The notes under the pieces: model-generated
What the model saw: only the letters and a program-made list of their open reading frames with translations
What the model was told of the DNA's origin: nothing
The model's database searches: none
Shown: positions 1 through 58,634 of the stretch, piece by piece
How the letters are laid out: each line of letters opens with the position of its first letter
How positions within the stretch are numbered: position 1 is the stretch's first letter
Position numbers and translations under genes: made by a program
Assembly (NCBI GenBank): GCA_965637545.1
Contig: OZ281496.1
Span: forward strand, 28,768,001-28,832,000
Direction: 5' to 3'
DNA length: 64,000 nucleotides
DNA from: Phallusia mammillata
Lineage: Eukaryota

Positions 1-109
1 AGGTCAGCCATAACTAGTTGTGTGAATAGAGTAGCTAACGCCAACACATAAAAAAGGCATTGACTTCTGATGTGGTGTTTAAGGCTGTGTACATGATGTT
101 TATTTGATT

Positions 110-265
110 TATAACCAAGTATTGCATATCCAGCAGTTTTTATTGTAAACAATCGACGTTTCGACGTCCAATACAAGACGCCTTCATCAGGATAATGACA
201 TAACTTGCAGGACAAAATTCTTATAAAGCGACAAAGTGCAAAACACACACACAAAAACGATAAGA
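110..265 (-). repeat. Dispersed repeat, copy 1, carrying an intact Penelope-type minimal hammerhead ribozyme (core 155-190)
   Basis: Minus strand reads AUUAUC-CUGAUGA-A-GGCGUCU-UGUAUU-GGACGUC-GAAACGUC-GAUUGU, then AAUAAAA. Homologous copies lie at about 10038, 11522, 36611 and 40570. Confidence 0.8.
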
Positions 266-399
266 AGAACATGCCGATGCAAACTCGCACCAACGCAATG
301 ATAACACCAGCTGTAAAAGCGCCCGATAATTTTTGTTTATTTGATTTGTCTGTGTATATATTCAACATATTGATACGCATCAGGTTTTTTTGTTGTCAG

Positions 400-4286: not shown

Positions 4287-7200
4287 ATGGATAGCGACGG
4301 TCTGCAACGTCAGTTTTCTGCACTGCAGGAAGAACAAAAGCGAAAACTGATGATGGTAAAGCAACGAAAATCCCAACCAAAATCACAAGACAAAATGGTA
4401 ATTTTTATGATGCGTTGCTGCCAAATTTCAATTTGTATCAAACAAAGCTAACCACATTGACATAATGTACATGTTTACAAATGAATATTGCACCAGAAGC
4501 CCTAATTAATGTCAAAGATTGTCTTGCAATTTTAGGTAGAGGACAGCTCTTTTGGTATATCAGATGATTTGTCATTAAGCATGGCTGATGTTATGGCAAG
4601 CTCAACAGTTGGCCTGAATGTTTCCTTGGAAGCAGCAAACACAAGCATGAGAGAAGAGCTAAGGTACCCAAGTAGTATGGCTTTGATGATTACCTCACAT
4701 AAAATGTGTTACACTCCTATTGTATTATGTCTAAAATTGAAATGGCTATTCATATTGCTCAAAGCCAAACAAATGCTGATGCAATACTTTATGAACACAT
4801 TAATGTTATGTATAATGCAATTTACATAATAAACAGAGAGCTTCGAGATGAAACAGGTCGCTTGAGAAAAGTTATGGCAGAAAAAGAATACGAAGTAAAG
4901 CGATTAAACAGGAAACTTCTTAAAATGGATGAAGAGAAAAGAATGTTGTCTGGTATGTGTTACTTCCAAACACAGCATACTTTTGGCATACACACTTTTA
5001 CAGATAAGTACATAATTTTATTGTTTGATATTATAGAAGCTGGAGTAGCAAGTGATGCTGCATCGAGCAAAATTGTTGACTTGTCTAAGAAAAATAGGGA
5101 GCTAACTGCAGTAATGGAATCTGAAAGATCCAAATGTGTCCGACTCCAACAAAAAGTAACAGAACTTGAAATCAAGGTATGACTACCTCTGCTGATAAAA
5201 AATGGAAATAAATGCTTTGTGGAATTGCATATGATGCAAAATCTTTGTGTTTTTCAGTTGCATAACTCTCCAAAATCTAGTGGTGATGGTGACAGAAAAC
5301 CTGCTGTTCGACAATCATTTGCTGCAGGTTTGGTTTAATGTGTAAATGTCTAGCCAATATATACCTGTTAAATGAGGCATAGGCAATTGCTGCATCGCTG
5401 GCAGTGACAGGCTTGTCAAAATGGTCAAAGGTTAAAACTCTGTCTCAGCCATGTGTCTTTCCTCGGAGAAAGCAGGAATAGTATATTGTGAGCATCACAC
5501 TTTCAGGCATTAAAAACCTGGGGCTTATTCGCTGTTTCAATAGGCCACAGACACCTGGGTCAATGGTCATCTAATTGTTACCCATACCTTAAAGTAGAAA
5601 ATTTCTATCCTGGTTCTCAGTACATTAGCATAAGACATAGTATATCACGAGAATTTTCAATGCTTTTTTATTGTACAGGATCTCCAAGAATGTCCAATGA
5701 CGAACTGCAAGAACAATTAAATGCAGCCAACCTAAAAGTATCTGACTACAGAAATCAAGTTCAGTCATTGAAGCAAGAAATGAAAGTCGCTGTCAAGGTG
5801 AGGTTTTTGCATTTTTGACTTCCAGTTGAGTCTTATTGAACTATTTTCTGTTCGAACACACAAGTGGAAGCCAGCATGCAAAAACACATACCACTTGGTG
5901 GAAGCAAATAGCCCAAAACAATTTTCTTATCGACATGGTCGTTTGCACGTTGTTTAAATTTTATTAAGACTAAACAAATAGGTTGCAGCAGTTTTTTGGA
6001 TTGTGTTTCAACACCTTAAAAAATGTGTTCCAGGTGAGCATATATCCTGCCAAATATTTTGACATGTTCTAGCTTCTTAACTTTATTGTAGAAGTGTGTG
6101 GGTAGCAGAAGACCTGCACGTGCATATCGTGTGGTTCTTAAGCCAGTAGTAGTCATCCAACCGCACGCCGCTTTAAACAACTCCTAACTGAAACTGCTAC
6201 AATCAGTAACTCGACCTTTCAGTAACGGTTTACTGCTGTTTACCGCTTTTCCGTTATCGCTTGCATTAACAGGTGCTGAGTCAGGAAACAGGTGATAACG
6301 CAGCAAACATACAACAGCTTCTTGGCAACGGGGCGCAGGGCTTCCGCGGCCGGGCGCAACAGGTGACTGCGTTGCAAGATAAAGTCAGGTGAGACCTGGT
6401 TTCTTGCGCTACAGTGGATAAGACAGGTGTCTTCTTGCACAGGTTTGTTTGTGAAACAACACGTGGGTTAACCCTTAACGGTGTACAATTACAAGCGTGT
6501 AGCCACACAAGGGCATCTATGCAAAGTCTGAAAAGTTTGGTAAACACAATCAAGAGTATTTTCGCCAAGTTTCAGAAGAAACATACCAGCATACCTGTTA
6601 TGAAAACTGACAACTATTTTTTGCCACACGTGTAAAAAGTGCCATAAAAACGACGGCTTTACTTTAACATTTCAAGTAATACAAATGTTTCTACTTTAAC
6701 CCAGGGATCTCGAACAAAAGCTGAAAGGCTCAGCAAGCCCGAAAGAAGACAAAAATATGACACGAATCAGAAACATGGAACGCATGCGCAAAGAACAAAA
6801 TGATGTAAGTAAATGTAGCAGCTGGTTGACTTTGCAATTTCGCGTGTTCATGAATACATAAAGATTTTGTTAGGATGATGTTTTTTGGTTTATATGACAT
6901 GGGCTTTTTTCTTTGAGTTTTTACAAAGAACAAATTCCCAACTGTGTTTTCCAGCATGGCAAGCGGTATAAAATCTAATTTCACACAAGATGCCACTTGA
7001 TATCCAACTTGCGGCGTTTTGTCACTTTGAAGAGCGTAGGTCATGTACGGATCACTACAAATTCGCGACTCAGAACAACATAGTGTCTATTTCTTCGTAT
7101 TGCCGATCCACAATGAAATTGGCCATCACCATTTAAAACAAGACATCTGTCGTTTTAAAGTTCGCGTGCAAGAGTACACGCTCTGTTTCGTCTTGTTTTG

Positions 7201-10200
7201 AAAAAATCAAACCGCTTCCTAGCAAATCAATATGTAGGGATTGACCCTAAGTCGGGTGTCTGTTAGTGGTTAATGTACGATTGTTCTTGCGAAAAAAATC
7301 TACGGATCTTCAATGATTGTATCCAAAAAAGTCATTTATTGAAAGATTAATGCAAAGCATTGGCCTAACCTTAAGCCGTAAACTTTGCAAAATTTGCCAC
7401 CACTGGAAAAGCCGTAGGTAAGTAACCGCTGCCGTAATGAACCCCAGTTTACGGATCTGCGGTTTTGTGGCTGTTGTCTTGTGGGCTGTGTTCAACCGCG
7501 CACGTATAATTGTCAAGTCTGCATTTCCAGCTGTCTTTCAGGTTTCAGTACCTGCCCAAGGATGAATATAAATTTCCTGTGGTTTACCGATGGGTCAAGC
7601 AGTTCTAAAACTGCGATCCACAGTCTGTGGACCATAGCATTATCGCTAGTTTGAAAGTTAAAACGAATTTCATGCACCCAGAAACATTCACTAAATGTTA
7701 TGTAATTATTTAATTAAAGCGGTGCGCAGCGTTTGCTAACAAATCAAAACACAGCGTACGCATTCCAATTCTGCGTTGTTTCTAAATCCCCCAAAACCTG
7801 GCAACAAACATTGCAACATCGTGTTGTTCTGTCTGTGAGTCATTTTCTCCTTATTGTTTAATTTTTTTTCCCGTTACCTCAGTGGTTCCCAACCGGGGAG
7901 GAATTCCTCCCAAGGAAGAATTTACACGTGGATTAATCTGTACACGTGGTTTGTAAATTGACACTTCAGCTTTGGGAGTATGACCTCTGTGGTTGACGAA
8001 AAACCCATTTTTAAATGATCTTTGTATGGTTTAGCATCTACTATGTAGTTGATTTGGGAGGAATGAAACAATTTTCAGAATTTCAACGGAGAAATTTTCA
8101 AAAAGTTGGGGACCACTGCGTTACTTTAACGCTCACTCATTTTGCCTATACGGATATTTTAGTTGTGATTTTAGTGGAACCCTAGTTCCAGTCAAGTGTT
8201 TAATTAAACGTTCACCACCGTAAAATAACTGTTGTTGTTGTAAATCCTCGTGTTTGACTCTTTCTGACCCGAAAATGCTTTTTGGTAAAAGCAACTATTT
8301 TACTCCAAGAGCAATAAAAAGTTATGCTATTGGACCGCATAGTGCGCTAAACCAACAAGGATGTGAAACAAGAGACTTCAATGGCAATGAATTTGTATTA
8401 CTAACAAGGCAATATATAAAGTACTGCACGCATTTATGATGTATGACGTATTTATTTGTTAATTTGACGCCAAAGAACGAAATTAATGTTACAAAACTTG
8501 TAAAACAAACTAGGAATCGCTCTCAATTTTGCTGCTATTTCGGTTAGGGTAGTTTTGTTTTACTTGGTTTTGCCAATTAAAAAACAATACTCTTAGAATG
8601 AAAACCAGTGTTTTTGCAGACCTTGAAGGAAGATTTGGTGAAACTTCAGGAACAAAGCCATGAATTTCAGCGGAAATGGGAAGCTTCAAAAGCACGTGGC
8701 AAAGTATTGGCTGGCGAGGTCAAATCACTCAAGGCACAGGTGATGAGATTGCGTTCATTTTCCATGTTTTCAATGAAACTCTCAGCTATTATGTACACAG
8801 TTCACGGCTTCTAGCGTTTGCATACAACTTTATTGAAACGGACAAAAAATTTAAACAAAATAATGCGGGACGGTGCGAAGTTAATCCTAAAAACAACATG
8901 CCATCTTTTTAATTGGTTAAAGATGGTTATCAGTTTTCGTTATGTCACAAGGCAGCCGGAAACAAATTTCCTTTCGGATGTGACAACAACGTGAGGTCAA
9001 GTGTGTTGTTTTATGTTTAACGGAACTCCCAGTATGTGGGCTACCTGAAAGGAAACCAAATGAAGTATTCAATTCCCCAGCACAAGCGATAGCAAAACAT
9101 TTCACTTTAATATCTTATGTAGCGGAGGATGCAATAATGTTGTTGCTCTTTGCACGAGTTAACGCGGCACCTGTAAATGTTTTACTGTACCATGAAATCG
9201 TCAAATGATCCACGCACGCACGTTTACTCATAACCGTGACCTTGGTTGCAGAAACGTGTCTTGCTTCGAATAACTGAGAGTGTTTGAACTAAACAGTATC
9301 GGACCTTTCAACAGGCAGTCATCGACAATCACCGTTTGTGTGATTAAATAACTAAGAATGGAAAATATTTTCATAGTAACGAAATCAGTCGATGGATGTC
9401 GTGGAATAAGTTATATATATTTCGCTTAATTGCCTTCTTCAGTTCCTTATTCAAATAGAACCATTTCGTTTTAACTAATGACATTATGTCGTCAAATGAA
9501 AATCGAAGAAAGTCTTTGACAAGTTTCGTGCCAAAACGCTGATTAAACTCTCTTTTCGCAACACAAACCACCGTATAGAAATCTATAAATTCATAAACAG
9601 ATCCGTTTAAAGAAGTATGTTAGATATATTGTTGAGTTTAAGGCGTATCGAAAATCTATACATTTCTGCTTGTCAGGCATTTGTGACAAGAAGATATCAG
9701 ATTACAAAATTTCTAGCTTCTTCCGACAAATAGGACGCAATATGCGTTACGCAACTCCACCGTTAACGTACTAATCTGTTTATGGCCGTCTGTCAACGGA
9801 AACGTTGGACCTAGTGTTATCTCCAAAATTAATCTTGGTGTGACACTCTGACGATCGTGAATCCCAAAACTTGAACTTGAAGTGATGCAACTACAAAACT
9901 GTCCGAAGAATCACAAACGTATGACCCGAACGAAAGGTCACAGTATCACGTCTTGCAAGTGACAAGAATTTTGTTACCGTGGCGAATTCGAGCGCTACGC
10001 CCGCTTTACTAAGAACATGGATAAAATGTACTTGTCCTATAAACGAGTATTGCTCTTCCAGCAGTTTTATTACAAATAATAATCGACGTTCCGACTTCCC
10101 ATACAAGACGCCTTCGTCAGAATAATGGCATATCTTTCAAAACAAAGTAATATAAAAAAAAGTTAAGCGTACAAACCAAATAACGAACTGCCTCTGCCGT

Positions 10201-13200
10201 GCAGATCGGCGTGTTGACGGACAAGGGTCGCCATGACAACGAGCTCATCACGACTCTAACGAAGCAGCAAGATCGGCTGCAGAAAGTTCTGGAACGAAAT
10301 GCGACCGACAGACGCGAAACGAACCAGGATGAACAACAGGTTTGTTGCTGCTGTGATTAATTCGTTTCTGCTCTGACGCTTTGCACAGGTGCGGTGACCA
10401 GCGGGGATGTTTTCAGTTTTTTTAGGCCAATCGGCATTGAGTTATGTTTTTACTAAAGCTTCTTCGCGTATGGGTTATTTCTCTGTTGTTACAACGTGGA
10501 ATAAGTCACCACCATGAAATATACAAATTCAATCCAAAACGACGTGTAGGACAAACGTTCAAATGATTGCGTTACCAAAACCTTGTCAATCTTGCCCTGC
10601 TCCGAAACATTATTCCTTGTCTTATACAATTATTTTTTCAATTATTAGTTGGGGAAAACATTTTTCGGCTTCAAATATTCTTAGTACAATTAAGCAGCCA
10701 ATACTGCAATAAAAAACCTTTTCAGTGGGCAAATACCGCTGTTACCACCATTACGACTGGTTCGAGAAGTTTTGTTGTCCATAGCTGTTGTAAGCATTTT
10801 CTTTTTTCCCAATAGATGTGTCACTTTAAATAATTATCTTCACTCCAATTTTCTTTACAAATTTGTTACACTTAAATTTTTTAGTCGTTATATTGCAGAA
10901 GATTTGGTGAAGTTTTTTTCCTGACCTAATACGACAATTGTTTTTGTGGTCACAGTGTTCAAAATCCGAACTATTTAGTCTACCTTGTTTTGTATTATAA
11001 CCAGCCAATTTTGAACTTTTCCCAAAGTTGTAATAAATAACTCAACGCCTTGTTGAATTCAGGACAAAGTTTACCTTTCTAGGCTAGGCAGGAAACAGAG
11101 TCCATCAATCCATCAATGAATTCATAAAACATGTGTTTAATATTAAGTTCATGTCTTTTGCTAATGTTTCCGCTTCGATCATTCAAAACCTCGCTTTAAA
11201 CTATACCAATACATTTGTGGTTCCGCGTTCCTGAAATGAATCAGTCGTTGCTTCATTGACAGATACTTGGAAAACTTAAAACAGTGGTCCGAGGCAACCA
11301 ATATGACATTGTTCGTGCGATTTGTGCAAGTGGTTGCAATAGGGTCATATATTTCCCATAAAATTCAAATCAGGATGTTTTGAACAAAATAAATGACACC
11401 AGCAGCGATTCCAATAATGTCATGAAAAATATAGGCCAGTTGCGAAACAAATGGATGTATAAAATATCAAATGTATATAAAAGTAAATAATGTAAATATG
11501 CTACTGCTGCCAGACTTAACGTATAAACGAGTATTGGTCTTTCGGCAGTTATATTATAAATAATATAAGTTTCGACGTCCCATATGAGACGCCTTCATCA
11601 GGATAATGGCATATCTTAAATGTCAAATTTCTTATAAAGCGACAAAAGCATCAAAACGCATGAAAAAACGCGACGACAGGCTTGTGCGACTACATAATAT
11701 AGTTTTTAATAAACGAACTCCGAAAATTGTGAAAAATGCTGAGTAACGGCGTGTTATTGGTTCGAAACAGCTATATAAGCCTCATGAACATGTCCCCAAA
11801 AACCCTAAAAACGCACTAAGCGCTTGTTAAATTGCCCTTAAAACCACGTTTTGTATTGTCTGTGGGTAGAGAAAACTTAGAAATTTCGTAGTTTGGGGCT
11901 TATACAAGCATATTCTGGGGATGAAGGCCTACAAAAAAGATGTCGTGTTTCGGTTTGCCACAACAAACGAAGTGAACGTTATCGCTTATAGCGCTTGTCT
12001 TCACGAATCGTGTTATGCTGCACGAAAATTTTACGCACAACTTATCGCATTTCAATACACAGAAATGTCAAACGTACGGAATTGAACCTTACATACACTA
12101 ACCGCCGACCAAAGCGGCAATTACACTGTCGTTAACCCCAAAAATGCATTTGGCTCTTTAAAATCGACTTGTTTGCCACAAGCCTTTTATCGCTAAAACT
12201 TTGTTTCATTTTCATCCCATTTTTGCTCAGTAGTTGAGAAGTCCTTGAAAGAAATCTTCGCCATTTTGTTGAAAAGTAGAAGCGTTAAAGTAAATTTGCT
12301 GGGTTTTTTTCAGCTAATCAAAACACGGCACGACCTTCAACAGCAAGAGTCATCGCAACTTGCACAAATGAAGCGATTGTTGAATGACAGCGAGAAGAGA
12401 GTGATGGAGTTGGAGAGTAAAATAGCTGAGGTTTGTGCGTTTAACCATCGGCATCGCATTTGTTTAAGCCCTGAACGAAAGTTACTCAACAAACATTTCG
12501 TCCAAGTTATACAAAAAACTCGTTTTTTTGTTAAAGACCCGGTCTCGATCGATTTTATTACTCGATTTGTTTCTTTTGTTTTCTTCCCTGAAGTTTGTCC
12601 ATCTCTTTTTGACATGAAATTTTTGATGGATTTGGATGAAATTTTCATAGATGGTAGAAATAGTCAATGTTTCAAAATGGATCATAGTGTCTGTGTGCAA
12701 TGACAAAATGTGCCAAGTCACCCTTATAAATTCGCTAGAGCATTAAGATAGAATGTACAGATACGACAAAAGCAGCGGGATACGAGTCGTTAGCAAAGTT
12801 ACATTTTTTTTACCTGAAAAACGGGTATTTTGTAAAATTTACACGAGTTATACGAAACCCTGAACAAACAATAGAAAGAAAATGAATACTTTTCGGACCC
12901 ACAAGAAGGTACAAAAGTGATGCTGTGTTTATTACCATGTTAACTAGATATAAAGTAAAAAAGTTAATTGGGTTCCGAGTTTTGCGACAATACCATGTCA
13001 GCAGTGACCTTGCCGCGTCAAAGCTACCCAAATATATTATATGCACGGCTATTGTACCTTAACTTGCGGTTACATACTTTTACGTTAAACTTTTAGGATC
13101 TGAACGGACGGTCCTATGATGGGGGAGCAACGTTTAAACCTCTGTCTGTGTTTTCACCACCGTCGCAGCGAACTCATCAAGGTGCACCAACACAGGTATG

Positions 13201-36610: not shown

Positions 36611-36670
36611 ATTACCCCGAATGAGACGCCGAAACGTCGGGCGAGTTGTTTATAAATGCCGGTTAAGGAA
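36611..36670 (+). repeat. Hammerhead-bearing repeat relic (copy 5), opposite orientation, 5' core deleted
   Basis: ATTACCC..ATGAGACGCC-GAAACGTC-GGG; the 3' stem II arm is perfectly complementary to the GGCGTCTCA arm of copy 3. Confidence 0.5.
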
Positions 36671-37607
36671 GATAAAATGTTTATGAAATAGGCCTGGCAA
36701 CAACACTATATTTATTAAACTTTACTATATATTTCCACCTTTTCCGGGTCAGACGCGTGGGCCGAAAGGTTTGCGTGTCGGAACTGTTAACTTATACGTT
36801 CACCATTTGATATATTATGTCTGCAGCAATGTTCAGAAAGTTTTTTTGTAGGGGAATGTCCTTTTGTATGTCTGGCATAAGTCATTATATCTCGAAACGG
36901 ACAAACATTGATCTGTAAAGTAAATATAAAATGCCAATGGTAAGCATCTCAGTAAATAGCTTTTATAAAAAAAACTGCAGCGACCATCAAAGTAGTCCAC
37001 AGTAAACGTGTCCACTCCGATATATGTTTAGCATCTGGAAATTTTAAAGCAATTATAGGCTTCTATATAAAGTCTTTTTCACAAGAATCGTGGTAATAAA
37101 CTTCAAAATTAATCACCCTGAAGGCTACAGACAATCAACAACAGATGATTACATTCGCACGACGCTTGACATGTGCAATTACTCAGTCTAACAAAATAGA
37201 CAGCAATTTAGATAGGAAGTTGTGTATGCTGGTCCAACTGCAAGTGAATGACCAGTTGTGCGCAGCGTCTGGTCAAATGTATTAAAGCGCGACTTTTTAC
37301 GATGGACATTTAAAAACAAATTCGGGTAAATGACAGAGGCGATGTGGGAGACATCAGTTAAAACCTGAAAGTATCAGTTTGGACTATGCTGGCATTTTTT
37401 TATTACTTTTCAGATGGTGAAAAAAATCTTGAACCAGAACTTGAGTTGCGACGTAATATTTGTAAAACCCGGTTTTGTGAAAGATAATGCATATCGGCGG
37501 TTGTTATTGTTCTCAAAGGACGATTTGGTGTTCATAAACAATTTGTTACGTTCAAATCCAGGATTAGGGGTTTCGTGTTTGTTGGACTAAAACGCGATAA
37601 ACATACA

Positions 37608-38814
37608 ATGCTGTCTGTGATAACCGATAACTTAGTAGCGTTTCTGTTAACATGGGTTGTTCTGACTTTGGTTTACAAATGGTGCAAAAAACCTCATCGT
37701 AATTTTTCGCCTGAGCCCATAGGAGTTCCACTGCTGGGGGTTCTGCCTTATCTGGGAGATAAGCCACAAGAAACTGTCAGGCAATGGACGAAACGGTACG
37801 GACCTGTTATGTCAATCAGAATGGGCTTGGAAGACGTCGTGGTACTTAATTCCTACGAGGCAATATACCAGGTATAGTTCAATAAGTTTTGGGGATATTG
37901 TTGTGCAAAGTAGTAAATTCATAGATGAAAACACCCTTGGGGAAAACAAAATCATTCAGTTTGAGTTTCAGGTGAAAGAATATATATTTTGCCTAAATGA
38001 CACCATCAGTTGCCAAACATCCATTACAAAGATCAAACTGGCACGAACGTAATAAAAAAATTCACTGGGGTAAAACGTTTTCATTTTGAATACTAAAGGA
38101 GCATGCAAGTAGCTTCTTCTTGTGTACCACAAGTCACAAGTTGGAGGACAGTAAAAACACAAACACACATTATCTTGTCTGTGCAGGGATATGTAAAGTA
38201 AGCAAACAACTTTTCCGGAAGACCCTCGAATGGTATCTTGCAACTAGTTTTTCTCAACTCGGGGGTGTCGTTCAAACCGTACGACAGCGATTACAAATGC
38301 CAGAAGAAGTTCCTTTTGAAATCATTTAAAGAGTAAGCTATAGTTGAAATCTAAAATCAACCTAGAAAATGTTGCTGTATTTCTACGTGGTAGTTGCGGG
38401 GTCGGAAAACTGGCGGTGGATGAACTAATAAATGAGGAAGCAGATATCTTTAACGAGTACCTGGAGGACAAGGAAGGCCAACTGATAATCCTTTAATTTT
38501 TTTTTCATTTATAGATAATTCCTAACTTTCATGCTGTCCACATGGATCCTGCAATATGGCCACAACCTGATCAGTTCGATCCTTACCGGCATATCGACGA
38601 AGAAGGAAAATTTGTGCATTCCCACAAAATTATACCGTTCTCATTAGGACCAAGATTCTGTCCAGGAGAACAACTAGCGCGAGTTGAAGCTTATATTTAC
38701 TTTGCAAAGCTCCTTCAGAAATACAAGATCCTTCCAGGAGACCAGCCCCCGAATATTGATGGGATCACTTCGGTGGTTCATTTTCCAAAAACCTTTAGAA
38801 TCGAACAACGTTAA
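37608..38814 (+). pseudogene. CYP2-clan P450 pseudogene A (nonsense codon plus deletion of exons 4-8)
   Basis: Exon 1 is 37608-37871, with the PPGP hinge mutated to SPEP. Exon 2 (38187-38332) has TAA at 38199-38201 where paralogs have CAA. Exon 3 starts at 38394, breaks off at about 38487 and runs into the intron-8 tail and exon 9 (38515-38814). Confidence 0.9.
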
Positions 38815-39667
38815 CGTGGTATTATACGTGACCTGTATGTGTCCCAATATTTACAACTACTACTAAGATCACCCAACGTATGTATATGATTTGCAAACAA
38901 CATGTTGCCAAGATACCCATTAACAATCTGCACTCATCTGTAGAGGATAAACGATGAGCAACGAGAAAACACTCTCCAATCATGAAAGTTTGTGGTGGAT
39001 ACCAAAACCTCTTCGGCTTTAACACTTCTATTGACTGAACTTCGCTGCATATAAATAAAGTGTCGTAAAGTATAAATTATCCCACCAAAGGCTCAATATA
39101 TACTGCGGCATCTGTATGTTTACTGGTGTTAACATTTATTTGGATAAAACAACAGGCAATCGATCAACATTCTGGCGCAGCTTTGTTGTTTACACCGCAG
39201 CCATAGTTTCAGGCTGTTTTAGCATCGGTTTTTAGCTAAGCAGACCGAAACACCTCACAGTAATTAAATCGGCAGTTCTGCATAAAATTGTATTTGGAAA
39301 TAAAGTTAAGTTCCTGTATAAAATCTTGTTTACGAGAATTGTGGTAATTAGTTTGCAGATTTTTGTAGCTCCAGTCTGCAGACAATCAACAACAAATGAG
39401 CGCATTCGCACGATTTCTGACACGTTTACTTACCCTAACCCAAAATAGACTGGAACCAGACACGAAGTTATGTATGTTGGCCAAAGTCGAGTAGATTAGC
39501 AAGTTTTGCGCAACCTCGGGTCAAGTATATTAAAGCTCGTGGCTTTTTTGACATTTGGAACCATTTCGGACCAATAAGAGAGTACAGACTTAGTGTAAAA
39601 CTTTCAGTTTTAGGGTTGTACGATTTTTAAAGTGTGATACCAGAAGTATTAGTTTTGGATTATACTC

Positions 39668-39752
39668 CTCTGTGATAACCGATAACTTAATAGTGTTTAT
39701 GTTAGGCAATGGACAAAAAAGTACAGACGAGTCATGTCAATCAAAATGGAAA
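39668..39752 (+). pseudogene. Collapsed CYP exon-1 relic
   Basis: TCTGTGATAACCGATAACTTA (start of exon 1) is joined almost directly to AGGCAATGGAC...ATGTCAATCAAAATGG (late exon 1). Confidence 0.7.
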
Positions 39753-40213
39753 TAATTCCAAGACTAAACCGGCACGAAACATTATTTGCGCTAATAAAGC
39801 ATATTCGCATGCGTATGGAGGGCCAGACGCTGGAACAAGAGCCTAGGCGCCTAAGGCTTAGCAACAGACCACATTTGCCACTTTTGTTTGTTCAGTACCT
39901 ATGTTTGGAATTTGGTCGAGCAATACGCAACGAAGTGTGCAATCAGCAAACTAACCAAACGTTTAAGAGCGTCTGCGCATTTCAACCTTGACTTCCTGCC
40001 TAAAGCAGACAGTGCAAGTTGCACGAAGGACAGTTTGGGTTACGTCACAGTGGATGCAAAGTGGATAACTAATAATAGTCACGTTGGCGGCTGATCTGTA
40101 AGTTTGATCAATTTCGTGTTAAATCAGATTAGCAGAGTTTTGATCAACATTTTGTTGCATTAAAATCCAAGATTAGTGCTCGAGAAAACAGGTCTTGTTG
40201 GACCAAAACTACA

Positions 40214-43200
40214 ATGCTGTCTATGATAACCGATAACTTGACAACGTTTTTGGCAACTTGGGTTGTTCTGACTTCGGTTTTTGCTTTGGCTTATAAATGG
40301 TGGAGAAAACCCCATCGCAATTTTCCGCCAGGGCCAATTGGAGTCCCACTTCTTGGAGTTCTGCCTTATCTGGGGGATAAACCTCAAGAAACTATAAGGC
40401 AATGGAGTGAAGAAAAGTACGGGCCTGTAATGTCAATCAGAATGGGCTTGGAAGATGTTGTGGTGCTCAATTCCTACGACGCTATATCACAGGTATGGTT
40501 CAATCAGTTGTGCAAGTTTTTGGGATATTATGTGGTTTGTAATTATGGCCAGGTAAACTGTTTTACTCAAGAAACGTTGCTCTTCCTGCAGATTTTTTTT
40601 GTAAAGTAATCGACGCTTCGACGTCCAATATACGAGCCGCCTTCATTAAGACAAAGGCAGATTATAAAACCTAATGTTCTTGGGCAAAAGAGCAGCGATA
40701 ATTAGCTTGTGCTGCTTCAAACTGTCACCAACGGAATGATTTGAATACTACTGGCATAAAAGTCATATTCCCTTATGTACCACAAGTCACAAAATCGTGC
40801 ACTTTATTAAAGAAAACACAGTCATACTTCGTATTGTCTGTGCAGGGATATGTAAGGCAAGCAAACAGCTTTTCAGGGAGACCATCGAGCGGTATTTTTC
40901 AACTGGCTGATTTTCTTGACTGGGGAATGTCGTTTAAACAGTACGACAGCGATTACAAATGCCAGAAAACGTTCTTTTCAAAATCTTTGAAAGAGTAAGT
41001 ATCAGTTAAAACCTAAAATCAACCTACAAAAATATTGCTGTGCATCTATATGGTAGTTACGGGGTCGGCAAACTTGAGGTTGATAAACTGATAAACGAAG
41101 AAGCAGATATCTTTAACGAGTATCTGAAGGACAAGGAAGGCCAACTGATTAATTTCAAGGTGACAGTTTTTTTGTATGTGTCTTTACAATATTTATTTCA
41201 AGTGCACTCGTGCCAATCAACAATATATACTGTGTTGTAGTTTAATGTTACCGTTTTCTTTTTTTTTTCGCGTTTTAGGATCATTTCTTCGCCTTAACTG
41301 CCAACGCCGTGCTAAAATTTTTGTGTGGAACTCGGTACGACTACGACGATCCCACAGCAAAGGCTCTGATTCGTGCTTTACAAAACGAGTAAGTGTCTTA
41401 AAATAGTATACCAGTTATGAACAAAGAGTCCAATTGAAGTCTCTTGGTTTTGATTCACCAGGATTTCTGATTCCAAACTTGGATTGGTTGATCTGTTTCC
41501 GATATTAAGATGGTTTCCTGTCTTTTCGAGTTCAGTAAATCATTTTCGCGAATGTATTTACCATCTTGCTGGTAAGTTTTAAATATTTTTTATTTGTAAT
41601 GGTCCGATATCGTCACAGACACTGATTTCATGTGTGATATAACGTCTTTTTCTACGCCTTTACCTTCGTTAGTTGCCGATTTTGTGTTCGTTTATACTTG
41701 CGTACAAAACAAAAGAGGTGTGCATTTTATGATCATCATGGAATTCTGTAGCCTATTATAAACTGGTATAGTTGTATACCATTTTCTACCGTCTATACCG
41801 TATAGATACAATTTGGTAGCATGAATTCAGTATTACGTATTGCTCATGTTAAATATGCTGATCAGGTTTCTATTGTTTTAAGATTTTATCGCGAGCCACT
41901 GGGATCAACACAAAGCATCGTTTAATCCAAACCATTTGAAAGACTTCATGGACATGTATCAATACGAACAGAAGTTCGGAAAAGGAGAAATGCACGCAGG
42001 ATTTAAGGTTTGACTAAAATACCATTGTATTTGCTTGACCTTCATTAAATCTGAGGTGTTTTGGGGAATTTGTTTTGGTTTATCAACCACGTTTGTCTCT
42101 TGGTGGCTAGTTTTAACTCCTTAGTCCGGTAATGGCAAGACACATGAACTTGTGGGACATTAACAACTTTATCAGGCTGATGATTTAACAAAGTGTATTA
42201 AAATAATCCTGTTCTTCGCCTAATTCTGACTAAACTTAAAGTACAAATGATTTGTAATGTGGTAAGGCTTGAATTAATCGACTTTGGGTTTACCGGATCT
42301 TCGCCTAATTGGGACATTTTTGGTCGAACGGGTACGGATTTACTATTTTTTTCTGTCGCTGCACCATTTTATGTATATTGTAGTCCACATCATGTTAAAA
42401 AGCACCTAAGTTAACTTGTTGCTCAATAGTCTTTACTTTCTAGGACCGTCAACTACGTGCATTGGGAATAGAGATTATCTCGGCAGGCGTAGAAACTACT
42501 TCAGCACATTTGTCCTGGTGTCTGCATCTCTACACATATTACTCAGAGCACCAAGCAGCGTTGGAGAAAGAAATTTCTAAGGTGTTTGGTAAGTGCTCCC
42601 GTGCATTAACATTAACAAACTGCGTGATAGGATTTACTCAAGCCTGTGAGGGGTTCGAATCCCACCGCAGACTAGGTTTCTCAACTGTTCCTTTTCATAT
42701 CGGAATACTTGGTGATCGGCTAATATGGTATAACGCCTTCAAAGAGCTTGGTACTATGATTTATACATCAGTGTGCCGTGATCGCTGGTCGGCAAGAACG
42801 CTTAAGGGCTGATCCCAGTGATGAATATTTAATCATTTTAACAGGTTTAGACCTACTGCAACTCTACACTGTTTAAAATATCAACACTGCCCAGTATAAT
42901 GTAAATGTACTTGTATACGCGAGATCAGAGTTGCATCTGTACTGAAACTAGGGCGTAAACCCGAAAGTGCAAACCCTTATTTGATTTCGTCAGAAAGTCC
43001 CCACAGACAGTAAAATTGCACCACAAATGATGCTGGGTATGAAGTAATACCAAAGGTAAGCCTGTGTTATTAAAAAATAGGCCCGAACCCGACCAGAATA
43101 GCTTGGCCGGATATACATCTCCAAACGAAATACTGGTTTTCGGCATAACATTTGTGGTAAAAAGATCATCAAGGATTTGTTCTATTTAGGCGCACGCGGC

Positions 43201-43972
43201 GCTGTGACGCAAGCACACAAACCCCAGACACCGTTCTTGAACGCATTTATACAAGAAGTCTTTCGAATTACCTCTGTTGCACCAATGTTGCTGAAACGAT
43301 CTGCTGACCATTCAGGCAAACTCATGGGGTACGACATTCCAGCTGGTACTACGGTGAGTGATAAAAACAACAAATAAAAGCCACGGTTTACGATTTTTGC
43401 ATTGTGTACCTCGTTGAAATACAGTTGTTTCAAATAGACACATAAAAAGTATAGTTTTAAGTAACGTTCTTGAATAGTCGTGGGTTCGAAACCCACTGAA
43501 AGCTAGCTTTCTTTAGCTTTAGCCTTGTCGCCTGTAAATACTTGAATAGCAGTTTTAATTAGGCACACAACCTAATCATTTGCAGATCTGGCCTACTGCA
43601 ATGTAATCACTCGTTCTCTTTTTGTGATAACTGTTTATTTATTTATTTATTTATCTTTATTCATAGATAATTCCAAACTTTCATGCTGTCCATATGGATC
43701 CTACAATATGGCCAGAACCTGAGAAGTTCGATCCGTACCGGCACATCGACAAAGAAGGAAAATTTGTGCATTCCCACAAAATTATACCATTCTCAATCGG
43801 ACCAAGATCCTGTCCAGGAGAACAACTAGCGCGAGTTGAAGTTTATATTTACTTTGCAAAGCTCCTTCAGAAATACAAGATCCTTCCAGGAGACCAGCCT
43901 CCGCATATAGATGGGATCACTTCGGTGGTTCATTTTCCTAAACCCTATGAGTTCAGAATCAAACAACGTTGA
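40214..43972 (+). CDS. Cytochrome P450, CYP2 clan, gene B (496 aa, 9 exons)
   Basis: Exons 40214-40492, 40846-40994, 41057-41159, 41279-41388, 41462-41571, 41883-42007, 42444-42588, 43190-43353 and 43667-43972. Motifs: PPGP hinge, AGVETT I-helix, EVFR, FDPYRH, heme loop PFSIGPRSCPGE. Confidence 0.93.
40570..40665 (-). repeat. Hammerhead-bearing repeat, copy 4 (degenerate core), in CYP-B intron 1
   Basis: AATCGACGCTTCGACGTCCAATATACGAGCCGCCTTCATTAAG aligns to copy 1. Confidence 0.65.
42651..42760 (+). mobile_element. tRNA-derived SINE fragment (Pol III B-box); similar pieces at about 26309, 43482, 44003, 48200 and 48717
   Basis: Recurrent GGTTCGAA(T/A)CC-ACC...GACTAG/GGCTAG with no cloverleaf. 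The body GGTATA-CGCCTTCAA also occurs near 27238. Confidence 0.5.
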
Positions 43973-45520
43973 CGTGTTAATATATGTAACTTCTACGTCG
44001 TTGGTTCGAATCCAACCACAGGCTAGATTTTTCTAGCGCCTTTTGCATAGACTGTGACTTTGTATGTGTCCCAATATTTGCAACTAATAATTTAATAGCC
44101 CAACGTATGTACTGTATATGATTTGCAAACAACAAGTTGTCAAGATTACCTTCCACAAGATGATGATAAACTGCTCTTATCTGTAGCTGATAAACGATGA
44201 GCATCGAGAAAACACTCTCCAAGCCAGGAAAGGTTGTGGTGGAAACCAAAACCTCTTTTATTCGGGTTTACCACTTCTATTGACTGAAGGTCGCTGCATA
44301 TAAATAAAGTGTCGTAAAGTATAAATTATCCCACCAAAGGCTCAATATATACTGCGGCATCTGTATGTTTACTGGTGTTAACATTTATTTGGATAAAACC
44401 AAAGGCAATCGATCAACATTCCGGCGCAGCTTTGTTGTTTACACCGCAGCCATAATTTCAGGCGTTTTTAGCATCGGTTTTTAGCTAAGTGCAGTGAAGT
44501 GTGCAGACCAAACACCTCACAGTAATTAAATCGGCAATTCTGCATAAAATTATATTTGAAAATAGAGTTAAGTTCCCATATAAAATCTTGTTTACGAGAA
44601 TTGTGGTAATTAGTTTAGAGATTTTTGTAGCTCCAGGCTGCAGACAATCAACAACAAATGAGCGCATTCGCACGATTTCTGACACGTTTACTTACCCTAG
44701 CCAAAAAAATAGACTGCAACTAGACACGAAGTTATGTATGTTGGCCAAAGTCGAGTAGATTAGCAAGTTTTGCGCAGCCTCGGGTCAAGTATATTCAAGC
44801 GTGGCTTTTTTGACATTTGGAAACAAATTCGGATCAATAAGAAAGTACAGATTTAGTGTAAAACTTTCAGTTTTAGGGTTGTACGATTTTTGAGGTGTGA
44901 GACCAGAAATATTAGTTTTGGATTATACTCACTCAAGTTTTTGTATTACTTTACAATTGGTGTAAAACATTTGGTGTAAAGAGTTGCGCTGCAGTATTTG
45001 CAAAATTCTTTGGAAAGAGGAAATACATGGGTATTAGGCCTACTATATTTTTATCGCAAGAAAACGAAACATTGTTAATAGAGATTATTACCAGATAACT
45101 TTAGGCACAAATTAAGCAAAGGCAAGTTGAAGTTGCGTGTGTCCAGTTGGACTAAAACGCAATAAACATACAATGTTGTCTGTGATGACCGATAACTTAG
45201 TAGTGTTTCTGTTAACTTGGGTTGTTCTGGCTTTGGTTTACAAATGGTGGAAAAGACCTCGTCACAATTTCCCGCCTGGGCCCATTGGAGTTCCACTTCT
45301 TGGCGTTCTGCCTTACCTGGGAGATAAGCCTCAAGAAACTCTTCGGCAATGGACGAAACAGTACGGACCAGTGATGTCAATCAAATTAGGCTGGAAAGAT
45401 GTTGTTGTTATTAATTCCTACGAAGCCATGTCCCAGGTATGGTTCAATAGGTTGTGCAAGTTTTTGCACAAAATAGTAAAACCATAGACGAAAAAACCCT
45501 TGGGGAAAACAACATCAGTC
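43305..45520 (+). repeat. Near-identical segmental duplication of about 2.2 kb (second copy about 48023-50243)
   Basis: The exon-8 tail, intron 8, exon 9, intergenic region and next exon 1 are almost base-for-base identical. The spurious ORFs 43977-44249 and 48691-48963 translate identically. Confidence 0.95.
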
Positions 45521-48500
45521 AGTTTTGAGTTTCGGGTGAAAGAATATATGTTTTCCCTAAATGGCATTATCAGTTGCTAAAATTCCATCACAAAGATAAA
45601 ACTGGCACAAACGGAATAATAAAATTTTAATTCACAGGGCTAAAACTACCCAAACACGCATTATCTTGTCTGTACAGGGATATGTAAAGCAAGCAAACAG
45701 CTTTTCCGGAAGACCTTCGACCGGTATCTTTCAACTAGTCGACTTTCTCAACTGGGGAGTGTCGTTCAAACCGTACGACAGCGATTACAAATGCCAGAAG
45801 ACGTTTCTTTTAAAATCATTCAAAGAGTAAGTATCAGCTGAAACCTAAAATCAATGTACAAAAAATATTGCTGTGCCTCTACATGGTAGTTACGGAGTCG
45901 GCAAACTTGAGGTTGATAAACTGATAAACGAAGAAGCAGATATTTTTAACCAGTATCTGGAGGACAAGGAAGGTCAACTGATTAATTTCAAGGTGATGTT
46001 GTCTTTTTTGTAGGTTTGTTATATTAACTTCAAGTCCACTCTGAATGTATGTACTCTGTGTATATTTAGTAAAAATTGAATGGCAAACTACAAATCTCCT
46101 AAATTTTGTGTGCGTAATAGTGTTTTACGTCCTTATATTTATTACCTCCGTTAGGATCATTTCTTCGCCTTAACTGCCAACGTCGTACTAAAATTTTTGT
46201 GTGGAACTCGGTACGAATACAAAGATCCCACAGCAAAGGCTCTGATTCATGCTTTAAAGAACGAGTAAGTTTCTCCACACAGAGTCTATTGCAGTTCTGA
46301 ACCTTTTTCGACGAATTCCTCCCTCAACAATTCAAAACATTTTTTATTCTTCAATACTATACAACATCATAAGCTAAATTATTCTTAGATTACTCAAAAT
46401 TGGTTATTTTACCTCACAGTACATATCACTAGAGCTTCAGTTTCTATTTATAAACCACATTCAAAAGTCAAAGAAAAATTCTTTTCTCAAGTTTTAAAAT
46501 TCCTTCCTTGGGAGGAGTTTCTCCCTGGTGTGAAACCATTGGTCTAATGAAAGCCTCTTGGTTTTGTGTACCAGGCTTTCTGATTCCAAACTTGGATTGG
46601 TTGATCTATTTCCGATATTAAGGTGGATTCCTATCTTTTCCACCTCAGTCAATAAATTTCGCCAATGCCACTATTATATTGCAGGTAAAGTTCAAATATT
46701 TTTTTCATGGTTAACTCCCGGAATACTAATAAACACAAAGAAAACACTCATATCTTCTATACTGCCATTGTTCCTGTTCTTGTGTGTACTATTTTCCGAT
46801 TTTCTGTTTGCTTAAGCTTGTGTGAAAAAAGGTTAACAAATTGCCGAAACTAGAGTTCAGTTTCACGAATTCCTAATGGTGGAACTGTCATGAATTGCTG
46901 AAGTTAAAATAGCATGAATTAAGTATCGTGTATTGCGTGTTAAGTATGCTCATCATTCTCCTGCTGTTTGAAGATGTGATCGCAAGACACTTGGATCAAC
47001 ACAAAGTGTCGTTTGACCAAAACCATTTGAAAGACTTCATCTACATGTTTCAACACGAACAGAAGTTTGGAAAAGGAGAAATGCACTCAGGATTCACGGT
47101 TTGGCAAAACTTTCTCACAAAAAATTGGCGATTACGCAGTAAAATACGCTTACATTCGCTGATATTATTTTTGATGGATGTTTAGATCTCGTGTACTGTT
47201 TATATTCTTTTATACGTCATTATCAAGATAGGTGAACTTGTGAGAAAATAACAACTTGAACAGGCTGGTGATGTGAAAAGAAACTCATTATTACTGTACA
47301 TTTGTATGTAGACTGTAGTGTAGTCTACATGAGGAGCGAAAGCCATAGCTCAATAGATCAACCGTCTTAATGTTTGTTTTGTTTTTCAGGACCGTCAACT
47401 ACGCACATTGGGAACAGAAATTACCCTGGCAGGAGTAGAAACTACTTCAGCTCATTTATCCTGGTGTCTGCATCTCTACATATATTACCCCGAGCACCAG
47501 GCGGCGTTGGAGGAAGAAATTACTAACGTGTTTGGTATGTGGTGTTGATCATTTGCGCCAACTGCCAAACTGTATACGGTTTACACAAGTTTATTCCCAT
47601 TACACCTTCAGATTGATTAAAATTTAAACATTGCTCAGCAATAAGCATGATCTGAGTTTAAATCCTTACTGAAATTAGTGCCCCAAACTGAAATCGCAAG
47701 ACAGAACTTAAAGGAAATCCTGTTGATACTTTATAAAATTACTCAAAACAATTAAAGAATAAATGATGCTGAGGGAAGCCCGTTTAATTTAACGTAAGCC
47801 CGAACCCGGCCCGAAAAGCTCGACCACAAATACAACTCTGAGCGAAATGCTCGTCTTTAGGTACAACATATGTGGTGATAAGGTATTCAGGATATTGTTA
47901 TGTGTAGGCGCACGCGGCGCTGTGACGCAAGCACACAAACCGAAGACACCGTTCCTGAACGCCTTTATTCAAGAAGTCTTTCGGTTCACCACTGTTGCAC
48001 CAATGTTGCTGAAACGAACTGCTGACCATTCAGGCAAACTCATGGGGTACGACATTCCAGCTGGTACTACGGTGAGTGATAAAAACAACAAATAAAAGCC
48101 ACGGTTTACGATTTTTGCATTGTGTACCTCGTTGAAATACAGATGTTTCAAATAGACACATAAAAAGTATAGTTTTAAGTAACGTTCTTGAATAGTCGTG
48201 GGTTCGAAACCCACTGAAAGCTAGCTTTCTTTAGCTTTAGCCTTGTCGCCTGTAAATACTTGAATAGCAGTTTTAATTAGGCACACAACCTAATCATTTG
48301 CAGGTCTGGCCTACTGTAATGTAATCACTCGTTCTCTTTTTGTGATAACTGTTTATTTATTTATTTATTTTTATTCATAGATAATTCCAAACTTTCATGC
48401 TGTCCATATGGATCCTACAATATGGCCACAACCTGATCAGTTCGATCCGTACCGGCACATCGACAAAGACGGAAAATTTGTGCATTCCCACAAAATTATA

Positions 48501-51604: not shown

Positions 51605-54600
51605 ATGCTGTCTATGATAACCGATAACTTGACAACGTTTCTGGCAACTTGGATTGTTCTGACTTTGATTTTTGCTTTGGTTTATAAATGGTGGAGAAAA
51701 CCCCATCGCAATTTTCCGCCAGGGCCTATTGGAGTCCCATTGCTTGGGGTTTTGCCTTACTTTGGCGAAAATCCGGAACAGAACATCAGGAAATGGAGTG
51801 AAGAACAATACGGGCCTGTAATGTCAATCAGAATGGGCTTGGAAGATGTTGTGGTGCTTAACTCTGTCGACGCCATTATGCAGGTACTATTTAAGTCTTG
51901 AAGTATAGTTTCCTTTTGCAAAGTAGTTTTAATGCGTTGACCAAGTGCATAGCAATTCTTTTTTTGTAATAGGGTTGTCGTTTGCCGTATGTCTGTTAAT
52001 AAGGCCCAATGCAAACGGAAGTTCATTTGAACAAGCAGGTCTAGTTTCCCCCCTTAACCCTTACTTTCTATGCAATAATCATCCAATGTAACATAAGTAC
52101 AAGTTTATCTAAAAGGGTTTTTAATTGTTTCAGGCCTTCGTGAAACAGGGAAGTCAGTTTTCAGGGCGCCCTTCTTCGGGTGCCTTTCAACTGCTTGATA
52201 TGCAAGACGGAGGATTATCATTTAAACCTTACACCAGCGATTACAAGCATCAGAAAAAGTTCGTCTTAAAAACGTTCAGAGAGTAAGTGGATTAATAACT
52301 TATTAATTATTACCTATTTTGCGGTGCGCAAATTTAAACTCGCCTTAATATGGGCTTAATTGAAAGCCATTAAACTTTGCAGCTTCGGGGTCGGAAAGGC
52401 AAGAGTCGACGAAATGGTAAACGAGGAAGTAAATATTTTCAACGAATTCCTGAAGGATAAAGATGGCCAACTGGTCGACCTCAAGGTACAATGTTAAATG
52501 GCAATTGGAGGGTAAGTTATATGTCATATCACCCATAAAACACAATTTATGTACGAATTCTGCATTACAAACACGAAAAGAGGTTATACCTGTAAAATGC
52601 AGAATAGTAGACTTTACGCCAAGACAGTTTTGGTCTGGTTGGTCCCAATGGTGATTTTTCTCCCAGTTTTTATACAAATGTTTCATAAATTACCGTTCAT
52701 GGATATTTTTGCGCAGAGCTACTTCTACACACTCACTTCCAATGTGATTGCAAGACTAATATGTGGACAGAGGTACGATTATGACGACCCGGAAATGCAA
52801 GGTCTGATGAAAGTTTTAAAGAGAGTGTAAGTTTATTTTTCCTAAATAAAATTTATAAAATATGGTGTAGCTACAACGCGTTCATCCACCAATTGTACCC
52901 GACACTTCTTTGCTCTCTATAACGTTTTAGTGTTGCTCAGCTATTTCCGGTTTGTTGATTGTTTCAGTGCAATTGTGTTGTTAGGTTGTGTTTCACCAAG
53001 CGAAATAAACTCTCAGCTTAACTCAATTGTGCCCATCACCGAAATACACTTCGTTGTTTAACTAAAAAGTTTATAATTGTCAAATTCAACAGCGCACAAT
53101 CCGGTTTAGTGAGATTGTAACATTAAGATTTTTTAGGTTTGCTGATCCCAGAGTCGGTCTGGTCGATATGTTCCCTAAGCTGAAGTGGTTTCCCTTGTTC
53201 TCCGCCTCCGTAAAGGAATTTATACACAACGAGCATTTTGTTCTTAGTGAGTGCAAAATTTTGTATCAGATTTAGTTAATTTGTATGGTACGTTGTTGGG
53301 ACTCAAAAGATAACATGATTTCAATCTTACCAAACAATGTTTAACAATCGTATTTCATTGCAAACCCTAACACAGTTGCCACATGTCTTTATAAGGTGCG
53401 TTTGTTTAACCATCATTTTCTAGTAACTAACTAACTAGTTAAAAGTTACCAAAATTGAAACCGGGCAATGGTTGGTATTTATCCACTTGAAGATTGTATG
53501 TATCCACTTGTGCCGCAAAATCTTTATCAGTGGTATTTCAATATATAAGCTATTGCTGCCAGGCATAATATCAAGTTCATAGAGCTCTTCTGACAAAAGT
53601 ATTTCATTGCAAATACTACTACAGTTGCCACATGCCTTTGTTTGGCGCCACTGTGTACTTTTTTAACTTCATGCAAAGTACAAAAATTTATATCGAATAT
53701 TCTTCTGTTAAGACATTGTAAAGAAACATTGGAAACGACACAAATCTCTGTTTGATCCGAACCACTTAAAGGATTTTATGGACTTGTTTCGTTACGAACA
53801 GAAGTTTGGGACGAGCGAAGAGAAAGCTGGCTTTACGGTAAATGAATAAATATTTTTGATGGCAACAATAATCTTGCTTTACCATACCCAAAATAACTCA
53901 TTGTAGAGTAAAATGGCAAAGGGACTAACAAAGCTGAAGTTTTAAAATAGCGCACAAAAAGCCAATTTTTTTTTTTTTAAGTAATTTTTTTTAACATGGA
54001 CCGAAATCTTCTTTTATTATGGTTTGTGGCACACCAATGTGCTGTTAAGTTTTACAAATGTTTATGACTGTGTGGTCATGAGCAAATATCACCACTTCAC
54101 CACTAAAACAGTAAAGCTTTTTTTAATATTTCAGTAAGCAACGTCGAAAGTATTCCTACGGACTTTGACTAACAGTTTTGGTACTATATACCATCCTAAG
54201 CAGTATTGGTGAATTTGAAATAGATATTTACTTCAATTTAGGATACATGGTTTGACTTCTTCCATAAACCCAAGTTTCGGATCTCAAAGTCTTAGGAATG
54301 TAACTTCAGCAAATTAAGAAAACTACAAAAAGTACGGAAACAATCTGTCATTGGTTTCTGTTACAGGATCACCAGATGGAATGGTTGGGAGCCGACTTTT
54401 TCCTGGCGGGAGCAGAGACTACTTCGACTCAACTATCTTGGTGTTTGCATTTGTACGTGTACTATCCGGAACATCAAGCAGCGTTGGAGAAGGAAATAAT
54501 TGAAGTGTTTGGTAAGACAAGCAACAAATTACACTATAGTTTGCACTGTGACAAACTACAATGCAGTACTCAGTTCAGAAGCCATATCATCTTTCATTGT

Positions 54601-57686: not shown

Positions 57687-58634
57687 TTTGCACTCGTGAT
57701 AGTGAAAATGCAACCTGTCCTTTACATTCTCAATGATTTTTAGGACTGTGATGTGCTAAATACAGACGCACAATGCAGCAACAAAGTTCACAAACCTGTC
57801 TTCCCCTACACAAAAATGCTGTCCTCTGATTGGCCTTCCACTGACCCCCCGCCTAAGTTAAAACTTGATAATTTAAAGATGTAATACGTCATGTGTGGTA
57901 TGAGCTCAGGTAGCATCGTATGCAAATTTAAAACACATAATTCGATAAAGCGACCCAAACACTTCGGGAGTGCTATTATTAGGACTCAAAATATACGCTT
58001 CCTGCTTTTCTAATGATGCTTCTTTTTAATGATTGGTTCCATTAAGAAAACACCCATCCTGGACATCTAACAATCTTCCGATAAATCTCAATACAGCAAC
58101 AATAGTAACAAAAATAAGCTATTGCTGTCAGGCATAATATCCAGTTAATAGTGACAAATGTTCTGACAATTTTAAAGTACAACTTCAAGGCCATATATAG
58201 GTTATGTTGTATTTCATCAACAAAACCCAATATATAGCCTACGTATAGATATAGGCCGTGAATTTAAATCATCTATTGTAAGTGACAATGTAGGAACCAA
58301 AGGTGACAACTAAATGGTAAACGTTGCGGCCTGTTTACGTAAAAGGACAAAAAAAGTTTTTCTGCAAATATCTGCAATGTCACCTTCTATACTAAACTTG
58401 ATTACGAATTACTAATGTTGTTTAGGCCATCCACGCCATCAATATTAAACGCCCTAAACGCCCCTAAATTTTTTTTTGGACAGTAATTGTTTCATGTGAA
58501 GGTATCGTTTCCGTGAAAACGTTGTATTCAAAGGCAATAAGCGTTGCGTCGTTTTCCACTTCCTTGTAAAATGACGCACAGAGGTTGCACGCTGGACTTC
58601 TTGTTGCAAACGGTGTTTATACTTGATGCGTATA

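Follow-up and report, generated by a model that had tools for sequence, protein, structure and literature searches.

The helix-III-less hammerhead ribozymes of Penelope-like elements (PLEs) were characterized by Cervera and de la Pena (2014; PMC4209133). The available part of that report describes RNAs without helix III, with a palindromic stretch at 15.2-16.2, an extra base after A9, a G10.1-C11.1 pair, a helix II of 7-8 bp and a helix I of 4-5 bp. Most genomic copies were solo and truncated, some formed inverted pairs and some occurred as 3-kb tandems around an RT ORF. Monomers of these minimal hammerheads showed no cleavage and dimers cleaved at a low level. For the Poseidon element PAc of Anolis (Frangieh et al. 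2024; PMC11167929), hammerhead cleavage was found only with protein, insertion did not need cleavage, and an internal start of reverse transcription was shown in vitro. In the portions of both reports cited here the role of the hammerhead in PLEs is left unresolved. According to the accessible text of PMC8557442, endonuclease-positive PLEs show partial tandems, an inverted 5'-truncated copy, an optional tail of 30-40 bp and a target-site duplication (TSD), and a linker without CX2-5CxxC is the Penelope/Poseidon state. The part of PMC3846280 (Arkhipova et al. 2013) drawn on here left the PLE template strand open between antisense and unspliced sense RNA.

The whole stretch of DNA analyzed here (the window) comprises 64,000 nucleotides, C3:28,768,001-28,832,000 of a 240-Mb sea squirt genome, of which C2, C5 and C6 are further sequences. 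Near its start lies a 5'-truncated solo pLTR of 223 bp (copy 1; 110..332, minus strand), 89% identical over 232 columns to the master copy of a PLE family, here called family A (locus L032, 6285-6515). Copy 1 consists of the last codons of the GIY-YIG ORF, the 3' region, the hammerhead and the pLTR end, without the tail. It is flanked by identical 14-bp TSDs at 97..110 and 334..347 (plus strand), and duplications of 10-14 bp were found at copy 1 and at eight further family-A insertions. The insertion lies within a GT...AG intron of 397 bp (3..399, plus strand) in an inferred gene model for a sodium:solute symporter-like gene, an upstream exon of which matches PF00474 (E 4.7e-21), and copy 1 is antisense to this predicted host gene. 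A genome search with copy 1 returned 1,143 first-look candidates, of which 40 were scored; divergence from its relatives is ~7-11%. A tblastn search revealed no PLE ORF inside or beside the window. Very probably, positions 110-332 represent a 5'-truncated, TSD-flanked pLTR of an autonomous Penelope/Poseidon-type element, in which the hammerhead is a likely inactive passenger predicted to cut only as ACGU-paired motifs.

The preliminary description of this DNA had proposed a Penelope-type minimal hammerhead at 149..196 of the minus strand. This proposal is borne out: all sequence features listed in the consulted part of PMC4209133 are present in this minimal type I hammerhead, an assignment based on its sequence and on covariation between families. 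Stem I (AUUAUC, 196-191, with GAUUGU, 154-149) contains one U.U mismatch and one U-G pair. It is followed by the core CUGAUGA (190-184), an extra A (183), a stem II of 7 bp (182-176/169-163) with a 6-nt loop, GAA (162-160) and the palindrome ACGU (159-156), all as had been described. C17 is located at 155, which supports the earlier prediction of a cut after this position, between 155 and 154. An AAUAAA motif follows in the pLTR, 10 nt past the cut site (139..144, minus strand). Copy 1 thus combines a CUGANGA...GAA...UH core, the extra base 9/10.1, the G10.1-C11.1 pair and a palindromic A15.1-U16.1 stretch with the lack of helix III and a position in a PLE pLTR. There is little room for doubt that this is a PLE minimal hammerhead inside a truncated pLTR, and as such an already known kind of element. 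Compared to the published part of PMC4209133, the host and the sequence families are new while copy 1 is structurally alike; the supplementary alignments of that paper may include tunicate examples.

A descriptor demanding at least 5 bp in stem II matched the window twice (copies 1 and 3), whereas 200 Markov resamples gave 0.005 matches on average. The genome-wide motif search that the preliminary description had suggested gave 285 near-exact matches (reversed control 0) and 1,730 matches to a generic pattern with ACGT (control 1). The resampling mean and the empty reversed control place the hammerhead matches beyond chance. C dominates at position 15.2 (the 1,730 matches), with 141 matches for another base at this position (control 34). 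Alternative 4-nt palindromes combined with a long stem II yielded no sizeable family, the matches listed being mostly ATGT variants of known families. An Rfam scan of the window gave 0 matches at E<=1, which is uninformative for a helix-III-less motif.

Related hammerheads define families B, C and D, which adjoin PLE ORFs 64%, 43% and 77% identical to that of family A. Covariation was evaluated with 21 hand-picked, related sequences of families A-D against 500 shuffles and slid controls. In this set 77.8% of the cells were paired, with 35 two-sided changes and a score of 0.433, each reached in 0/500 shuffles, and the slid controls remained below the real alignment. The two other measures of the five, pair counts and pair types, were not above the shuffles (299/500 and 436/500). 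Helix II of 7-8 bp and helix I of 4-5 bp are therefore accompanied by compensatory changes in three of five measures, and the G10.1-C11.1 pair is found in 21/21 hammerheads. The covariation that the preliminary description had read from the five window copies is absent; it is real between families only. In the predicted folds the active form is disfavoured, both as monomer and as dimer. For the monomer the predicted minimum (-13.5 kcal/mol) has the core paired with ACGUC, compared to -9.1 for an open core, and the active dimer is predicted at -17.1 kcal/mol against -32.2 for an extended duplex.

It had been supposed that these repeats are a non-autonomous PLE or retrozyme-like family. This view does not stand, as an autonomous parent was found in the same genome. 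The ORF of L032 (6496-8907) is uninterrupted and encodes 804 amino acids from the first Met, with an RT domain and, at the C terminus, a GIY-YIG domain (Pfam RVT_1, E 2.4e-7, above cut-off; GIY-YIG, E 0.011, below cut-off but with the motif visible). Of 7,990 candidates scored against the L032 protein, 1,100 are homologues at E<=1e-50. The partial tandems of L032 are arranged head-to-head, with a hammerhead spacing of 2,598 bp; three hammerheads at 2,600-bp spacing occur on C2. Family A thus has a unit of 2.6 kb, tandem and inverted copies, an optional tail and TSDs, as in endonuclease-positive PLEs. No cysteine cluster (CX2-5CxxC) is present in the RT-endonuclease linker, and family A is classed as Penelope/Poseidon-type by the state of this linker. 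Family A shares with PAc the RT and C-terminal GIY-YIG domain, the tandem pLTRs, the AT-rich targets and the optional tail of ~30 nt inside the ORF start (PMC11167929). In PAc the start of the ORF lies at stem II, upstream of the cut, whereas the first Met of family A is located 25 nt downstream of it. Contigs of three studies (runs X5, X8 and X10) contain a second variant of family A, which compared with L032 diverges by ~7-8% over the ORF.

Among 29 scored of 30 loci, the family-A copy stops at the pLTR end in 15 cases, at the tail end ~30 nt further on in 10 and elsewhere in 4. These two preferred 3' ends match the pair of internal sites at which PAc reverse transcription was reported to start (PMC11167929). 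The 5' ends are staggered and reach into the RT-GIY-YIG ORF. In a sample of 65 copies, made up of the first 67 among the 285 matches minus two internal tandem copies, 54 stop within 300 nt upstream. We propose that the upstream pLTR would initiate transcription at stem I's first base or close to it, which would give a full-length RNA with one hammerhead per end. The element protein would nick AT-rich DNA, and reverse transcription would begin internally, at the pLTR end or the tail end, its early termination giving rise to a copy such as the 223-bp copy 1. As copy 1 spans the cut site, its template would have been uncleaved. In tandem transcripts two motifs could form a 4-bp ACGU helix and be cut slowly after C17, probably assisted by protein; the solo, antisense copy 1 would have no partner in cis.

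The 5' junctions near the motif were scored at 30 loci of 76 matches. One junction of the 30 was located at the cut site and nine at the base of stem II, and a further eight fell at 6474-6476, including indel and inversion artefacts. This rules out that genomic junctions are enriched at the cut site, and the lack of a pile-up there among the sampled copy ends indicates that templates were mostly uncut. Reverse transcription likely stalls at the folded stem II, judging from the position of these ends. Data from sequencing runs were used as contigs only, with 14 of 20 runs guessed to be RNA. Contigs of four guessed-RNA runs span the whole family-A unit, and no splice joints were found in the family-A contigs. 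In three contigs from two studies (guessed-RNA runs) a sequence that we take to be the template-switch adapter is joined directly before master position 6429 or its equivalent in a variant. Position 6429 opens stem I and is also the A in TCATT; in copy 1 it corresponds to A196 within an initiator-like TCATT (194..198, minus strand), which in our assumption fits the Inr consensus. Position 6429 may thus be a transcription start, a weak candidate as adapter strand invasion is possible. CA is a common start dinucleotide in Ciona, according to the part of PMC4691747 consulted. No adapter-joined end at the cut site was seen among the 24 loose-end rows listed, with 42 more outside this list, a result that weighs neither for nor against cleavage.

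These ends bear on a different explanation of the motif, in which it is kept mainly as a promoter or protein-binding structure and cleavage is rare or vestigial. TCATT would mark the start, as the adapter-joined ends at 6429 suggest, and the 3' strand of stem II would be a downstream promoter element (DPE) at +28. Indeed RGWYV, which we assume to be the DPE consensus, is found exactly at +28 in families A, B and D and in 5/6 family-E copies scored, compared to 5/308 TCAKT sites in the background, but family C lacks a match at this position. From the accessible parts of the respective papers, Drosophila Penelope carries an RGACGTGY element (PMC2377424) and overlap of promoter and ribozyme is known in L1Tc (PMC3383444), while in promoters of Ciona the DPE has no preferred position (PMC4691747). 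In vitro insertion of the anole element was unaffected in hammerhead mutants, and none of the reads stopped at the cut site (PMC11167929). However, the catalytic core and palindrome have been kept across clades whose proteins are 20% identical, and copy ends do not pile up at the candidate start: such a pile-up is ruled out, with 4/54 ends within 3 nt of 6429. A predominantly promoter-related role is compatible with the insertion history set out above, and we consider it rather unlikely.

Since the majority of family-A copies are short and without ORF, multiplication as a non-autonomous retrozyme or SINE-like family via short circular RNAs has also been weighed. Animal non-LTR retrozymes carry type I hammerheads related to those of pLTRs and have been proposed to derive from pLTRs (bioRxiv 10.64898/2026.07.22.740005, in part). 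The same text defines the class by tandem hammerhead units, whereas family A lacks short tandem units and has an autonomous parent. The preliminary description had suggested looking for tandem copies and a linked ORF; the 2.6-kb tandems and the RT/GIY-YIG ORF were found, but no short tandem repeats, and hence no short non-coding tandem units, occur at any hammerhead copy of the window. Together with the shared 3' ends and the staggered 5' ends reaching into the RT-GIY-YIG ORF, this largely refutes the circular RNA route, which we regard as highly improbable. That copy 1 is a regulatory ribozyme adopted by the host and acting on the gene that contains it is scarcely credible. Its core is intact inside an intron, but copy 1 is antisense to the gene and without a partner in cis, and at a divergence of only ~7-11% an intact 48-nt motif needs no selection. 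The passenger hammerhead in a truncated pLTR therefore remains our preferred reading of copy 1.

The other window copies had been described as members of the same repeat. This holds for copies 2-4, which are decayed relatives of family A on the minus strand, but copy 5 belongs to a different and older family (family E). Copy 2 (10038..10146) is 82% identical to the master and has an A13 to G change, C at N7 and one mismatch in stem II; it alone varies at N7, a variation that had been ascribed to the other copies in general. Copy 3 (11494..11647, 81% identical, with tail) has lost the palindrome, having ACUU instead of ACGU, and the first pair of stem I. Its seven stem II pairs are the same as in copy 1, so that the base-pair swaps once reported for it do not exist. 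Copy 4 (40548..40740, 77-78% identical) has a mutated core. Copy 5 (36615..36716, plus strand) starts inside stem II at about 36615 and is without catalytic core; as CUGANGA and the 5' strand of stem II are absent, the compensatory pairing claimed for it falls away. The statement that only copy 1 has a full core is correct with respect to copies 2, 4 and 5, but copy 3 retains all invariant core bases. Comparison with family A identified two further minus-strand pieces, a pLTR-end/tail fragment without hammerhead (53537..53608) and a tail-only fragment (58112..58146).

The window displays several features besides PLE copies. An intronless ORF of 609 amino acids with leucine-rich repeats (PF13516; 2041-3870, minus strand), presumably resembling CEP78, is apparently antisense to a plus-strand coiled-coil gene that we take to resemble CCDC13. 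A tandem cytochrome P450 gene cluster occupies ~37000-55700 (PF00067 at 37569-37877) and includes a 2.5-kb duplication with 96% identity (43054-45520/47772-50245). Two intronless hydrophobic ORFs of ~330 amino acids each are located at 56754-57755 (minus strand; no Pfam match) and 59879-60841 (plus strand), and similar-looking ORFs were seen in L037 and L287. A 154-bp tandem duplication of 2.1 copies is found at 58637-59011.

A second hammerhead type had been overlooked in the window. It is present in three minus-strand copies of another family, family S: a pLTR piece of a Neptune-type PLE (9245..9461), in which a spliced leader is followed by GAA and an AUAUAU hammerhead, and two decayed hammerheads at 37935..38011 (73%) and 45475..45578 (71%). 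In the first copy the leader lies at 9461-9446 (15/16 match) and C3 at 9442, and stem II is decayed. Family-S hammerheads have the 6-nt palindrome AUAUAU and a short stem II. The 16-nt leader is the Ciona spliced leader given in Table 1 of PMC1488885, as far as the consulted part of that paper goes. Its 16-mer has 3,860 exact genome matches (control 0); the first 30 are dispersed or within segmental repeats, and the total may include arrays of leader RNA genes. The leader followed by 2-9 nt and the core through GAAATAT has 97 exact genome matches (control 0), one of them at window positions 9417-9455.

Family S also exists in an acceptor form, in which a pyrimidine tract plus AG replaces the leader 3-5 nt before the core. 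By eye, 33 of 38 rows were of the acceptor type, one carried the leader and four neither, with a query that favoured the acceptor form. Between subfamilies stem I covaries, with the terminal bases of the leader as part of it, and from the position of the acceptor the last bases of the leader would complete stem I. Acceptor-type pLTRs follow an RT and GIY-YIG ORF 20% identical to that of family A, with a CxxCxxC linker. CxxCxxC precedes the GIY-YIG motif in L277, L278, L280, L282, L284 and L286, as in Neptune/Nematis linkers, and 'Neptune-type' is used here as a label for the linker only. In one of these loci (L286, C5:16981500-16990000) a C2H2 zinc-finger-like array precedes the family-S ORF and is fused to it in frame (open frame of 700 amino acids). 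In the part of PMC4209133 consulted, Drosophila virilis Penelope likewise has an intron end with acceptor by helix I and a longer palindromic helix III. Family S differs from it by the cysteine linker of Neptune/Nematis type and by the joining of the acceptor to the host leader instead of a cis exon.

The family-S loci studied comprise L156-L185 and L247-L288. Among 28 leader-headed copies, five had a duplication of 9-13 bp abutting the 5' end of the leader (control rate 6%) and one a doubtful 8-bp match; five rows showed an inverted leader upstream. Metagenome contigs, representing another organism's DNA, contain another family that shares this leader and layout in at least 121 stretches, of which 80 were examined (L350-L429) and 27 of 79 scored had duplications. 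The occurrence of acceptor and leader at the same point implies sense, trans-spliced templates, and as the leader is confined to processed sense RNA, leader-headed genomic copies record a sense, uncleaved template. From the sequences of these copies we infer that sense PLE RNA would be trans-spliced and, its hammerhead still uncut, then reverse-transcribed from an internal position as far as the cap. Alternatively, a single leader capture may have founded one lineage, although many divergent subfamilies carry the leader. The leader also directly heads LINE-like elements at L115:1501 and L120:1501 (a coiled-coil ORF, then an endonuclease-like ORF; families by eye), so that further retroelement RNAs may be trans-spliced in this organism.

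Family A is connected with the leader in another way. Its motif is joined to the leader at five genomic junctions (control 0). Leader-headed copies of DHFR and PMVK (Pfam E 8e-29 and 3e-43) that end in poly(A) are preceded by pLTR pieces at C3:11.54-11.56 Mb and 12.61 Mb, and two further leader-headed mRNA copies lie behind pLTR pieces at the same loci. The DHFR-PMVK cassette was found at ~15 places, mostly on C3 (loci L148-L151 and L238-L243; 6.0-7.6, 11.5-11.6 and 12.6 Mb). The DHFR parent on C6 has introns that are missing from the copy. An AG at the leader joint is present in the PMVK parent and in a third parent and absent in the DHFR parent. One adapter-joined contig and the motif-leader-DHFR junction match the pLTR variant of the cassettes, suggesting that this pLTR drives the retrogenes. 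Amplification of pLTR-framed host genes is known from Adineta Penelope (PMC3846280). The consulted part of that work describes a captured gene with introns and suggests an antisense template, whereas the DHFR copy lacks introns and has leader and poly(A), which points to a processed sense template. Leader-tagged retrogenes are known in dinoflagellates, from sources seen in part. Literature searches found no description of leader-headed PLE hammerheads or of leader-headed mRNA capture by PLEs among the papers listed in them. Three distinct junctions between poly(A) and pLTR occur: one begins precisely at the cut site, the other two at stem II's base. The first may be a fossil of cleavage in vivo, to which we give only a small chance; the spread of junctions near the motif and the weak stem I of the cassette variant make it merely a lead. 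On balance we favour the view that PLEs of this sea squirt are copied from processed sense RNA with an uncut hammerhead, the Neptune-type family being trans-spliced and family A jumping between pLTR RNA and leader-capped mRNAs, thereby building pLTR-driven DHFR-PMVK cassettes.

With the motif of copy 1 a known class gains one further genome, and the parent element, young and with an intact ORF, lends itself to biochemistry. This motif is outweighed by the side results, the leader-headed family S and the mRNA cassettes, which bear on PLE replication. Leader-headed copies would offer a natural marker with which RNA 5' ends could be counted against ribozyme cuts, and the DHFR-PMVK cassettes would represent a way for a PLE to make and amplify spliced retrogenes.
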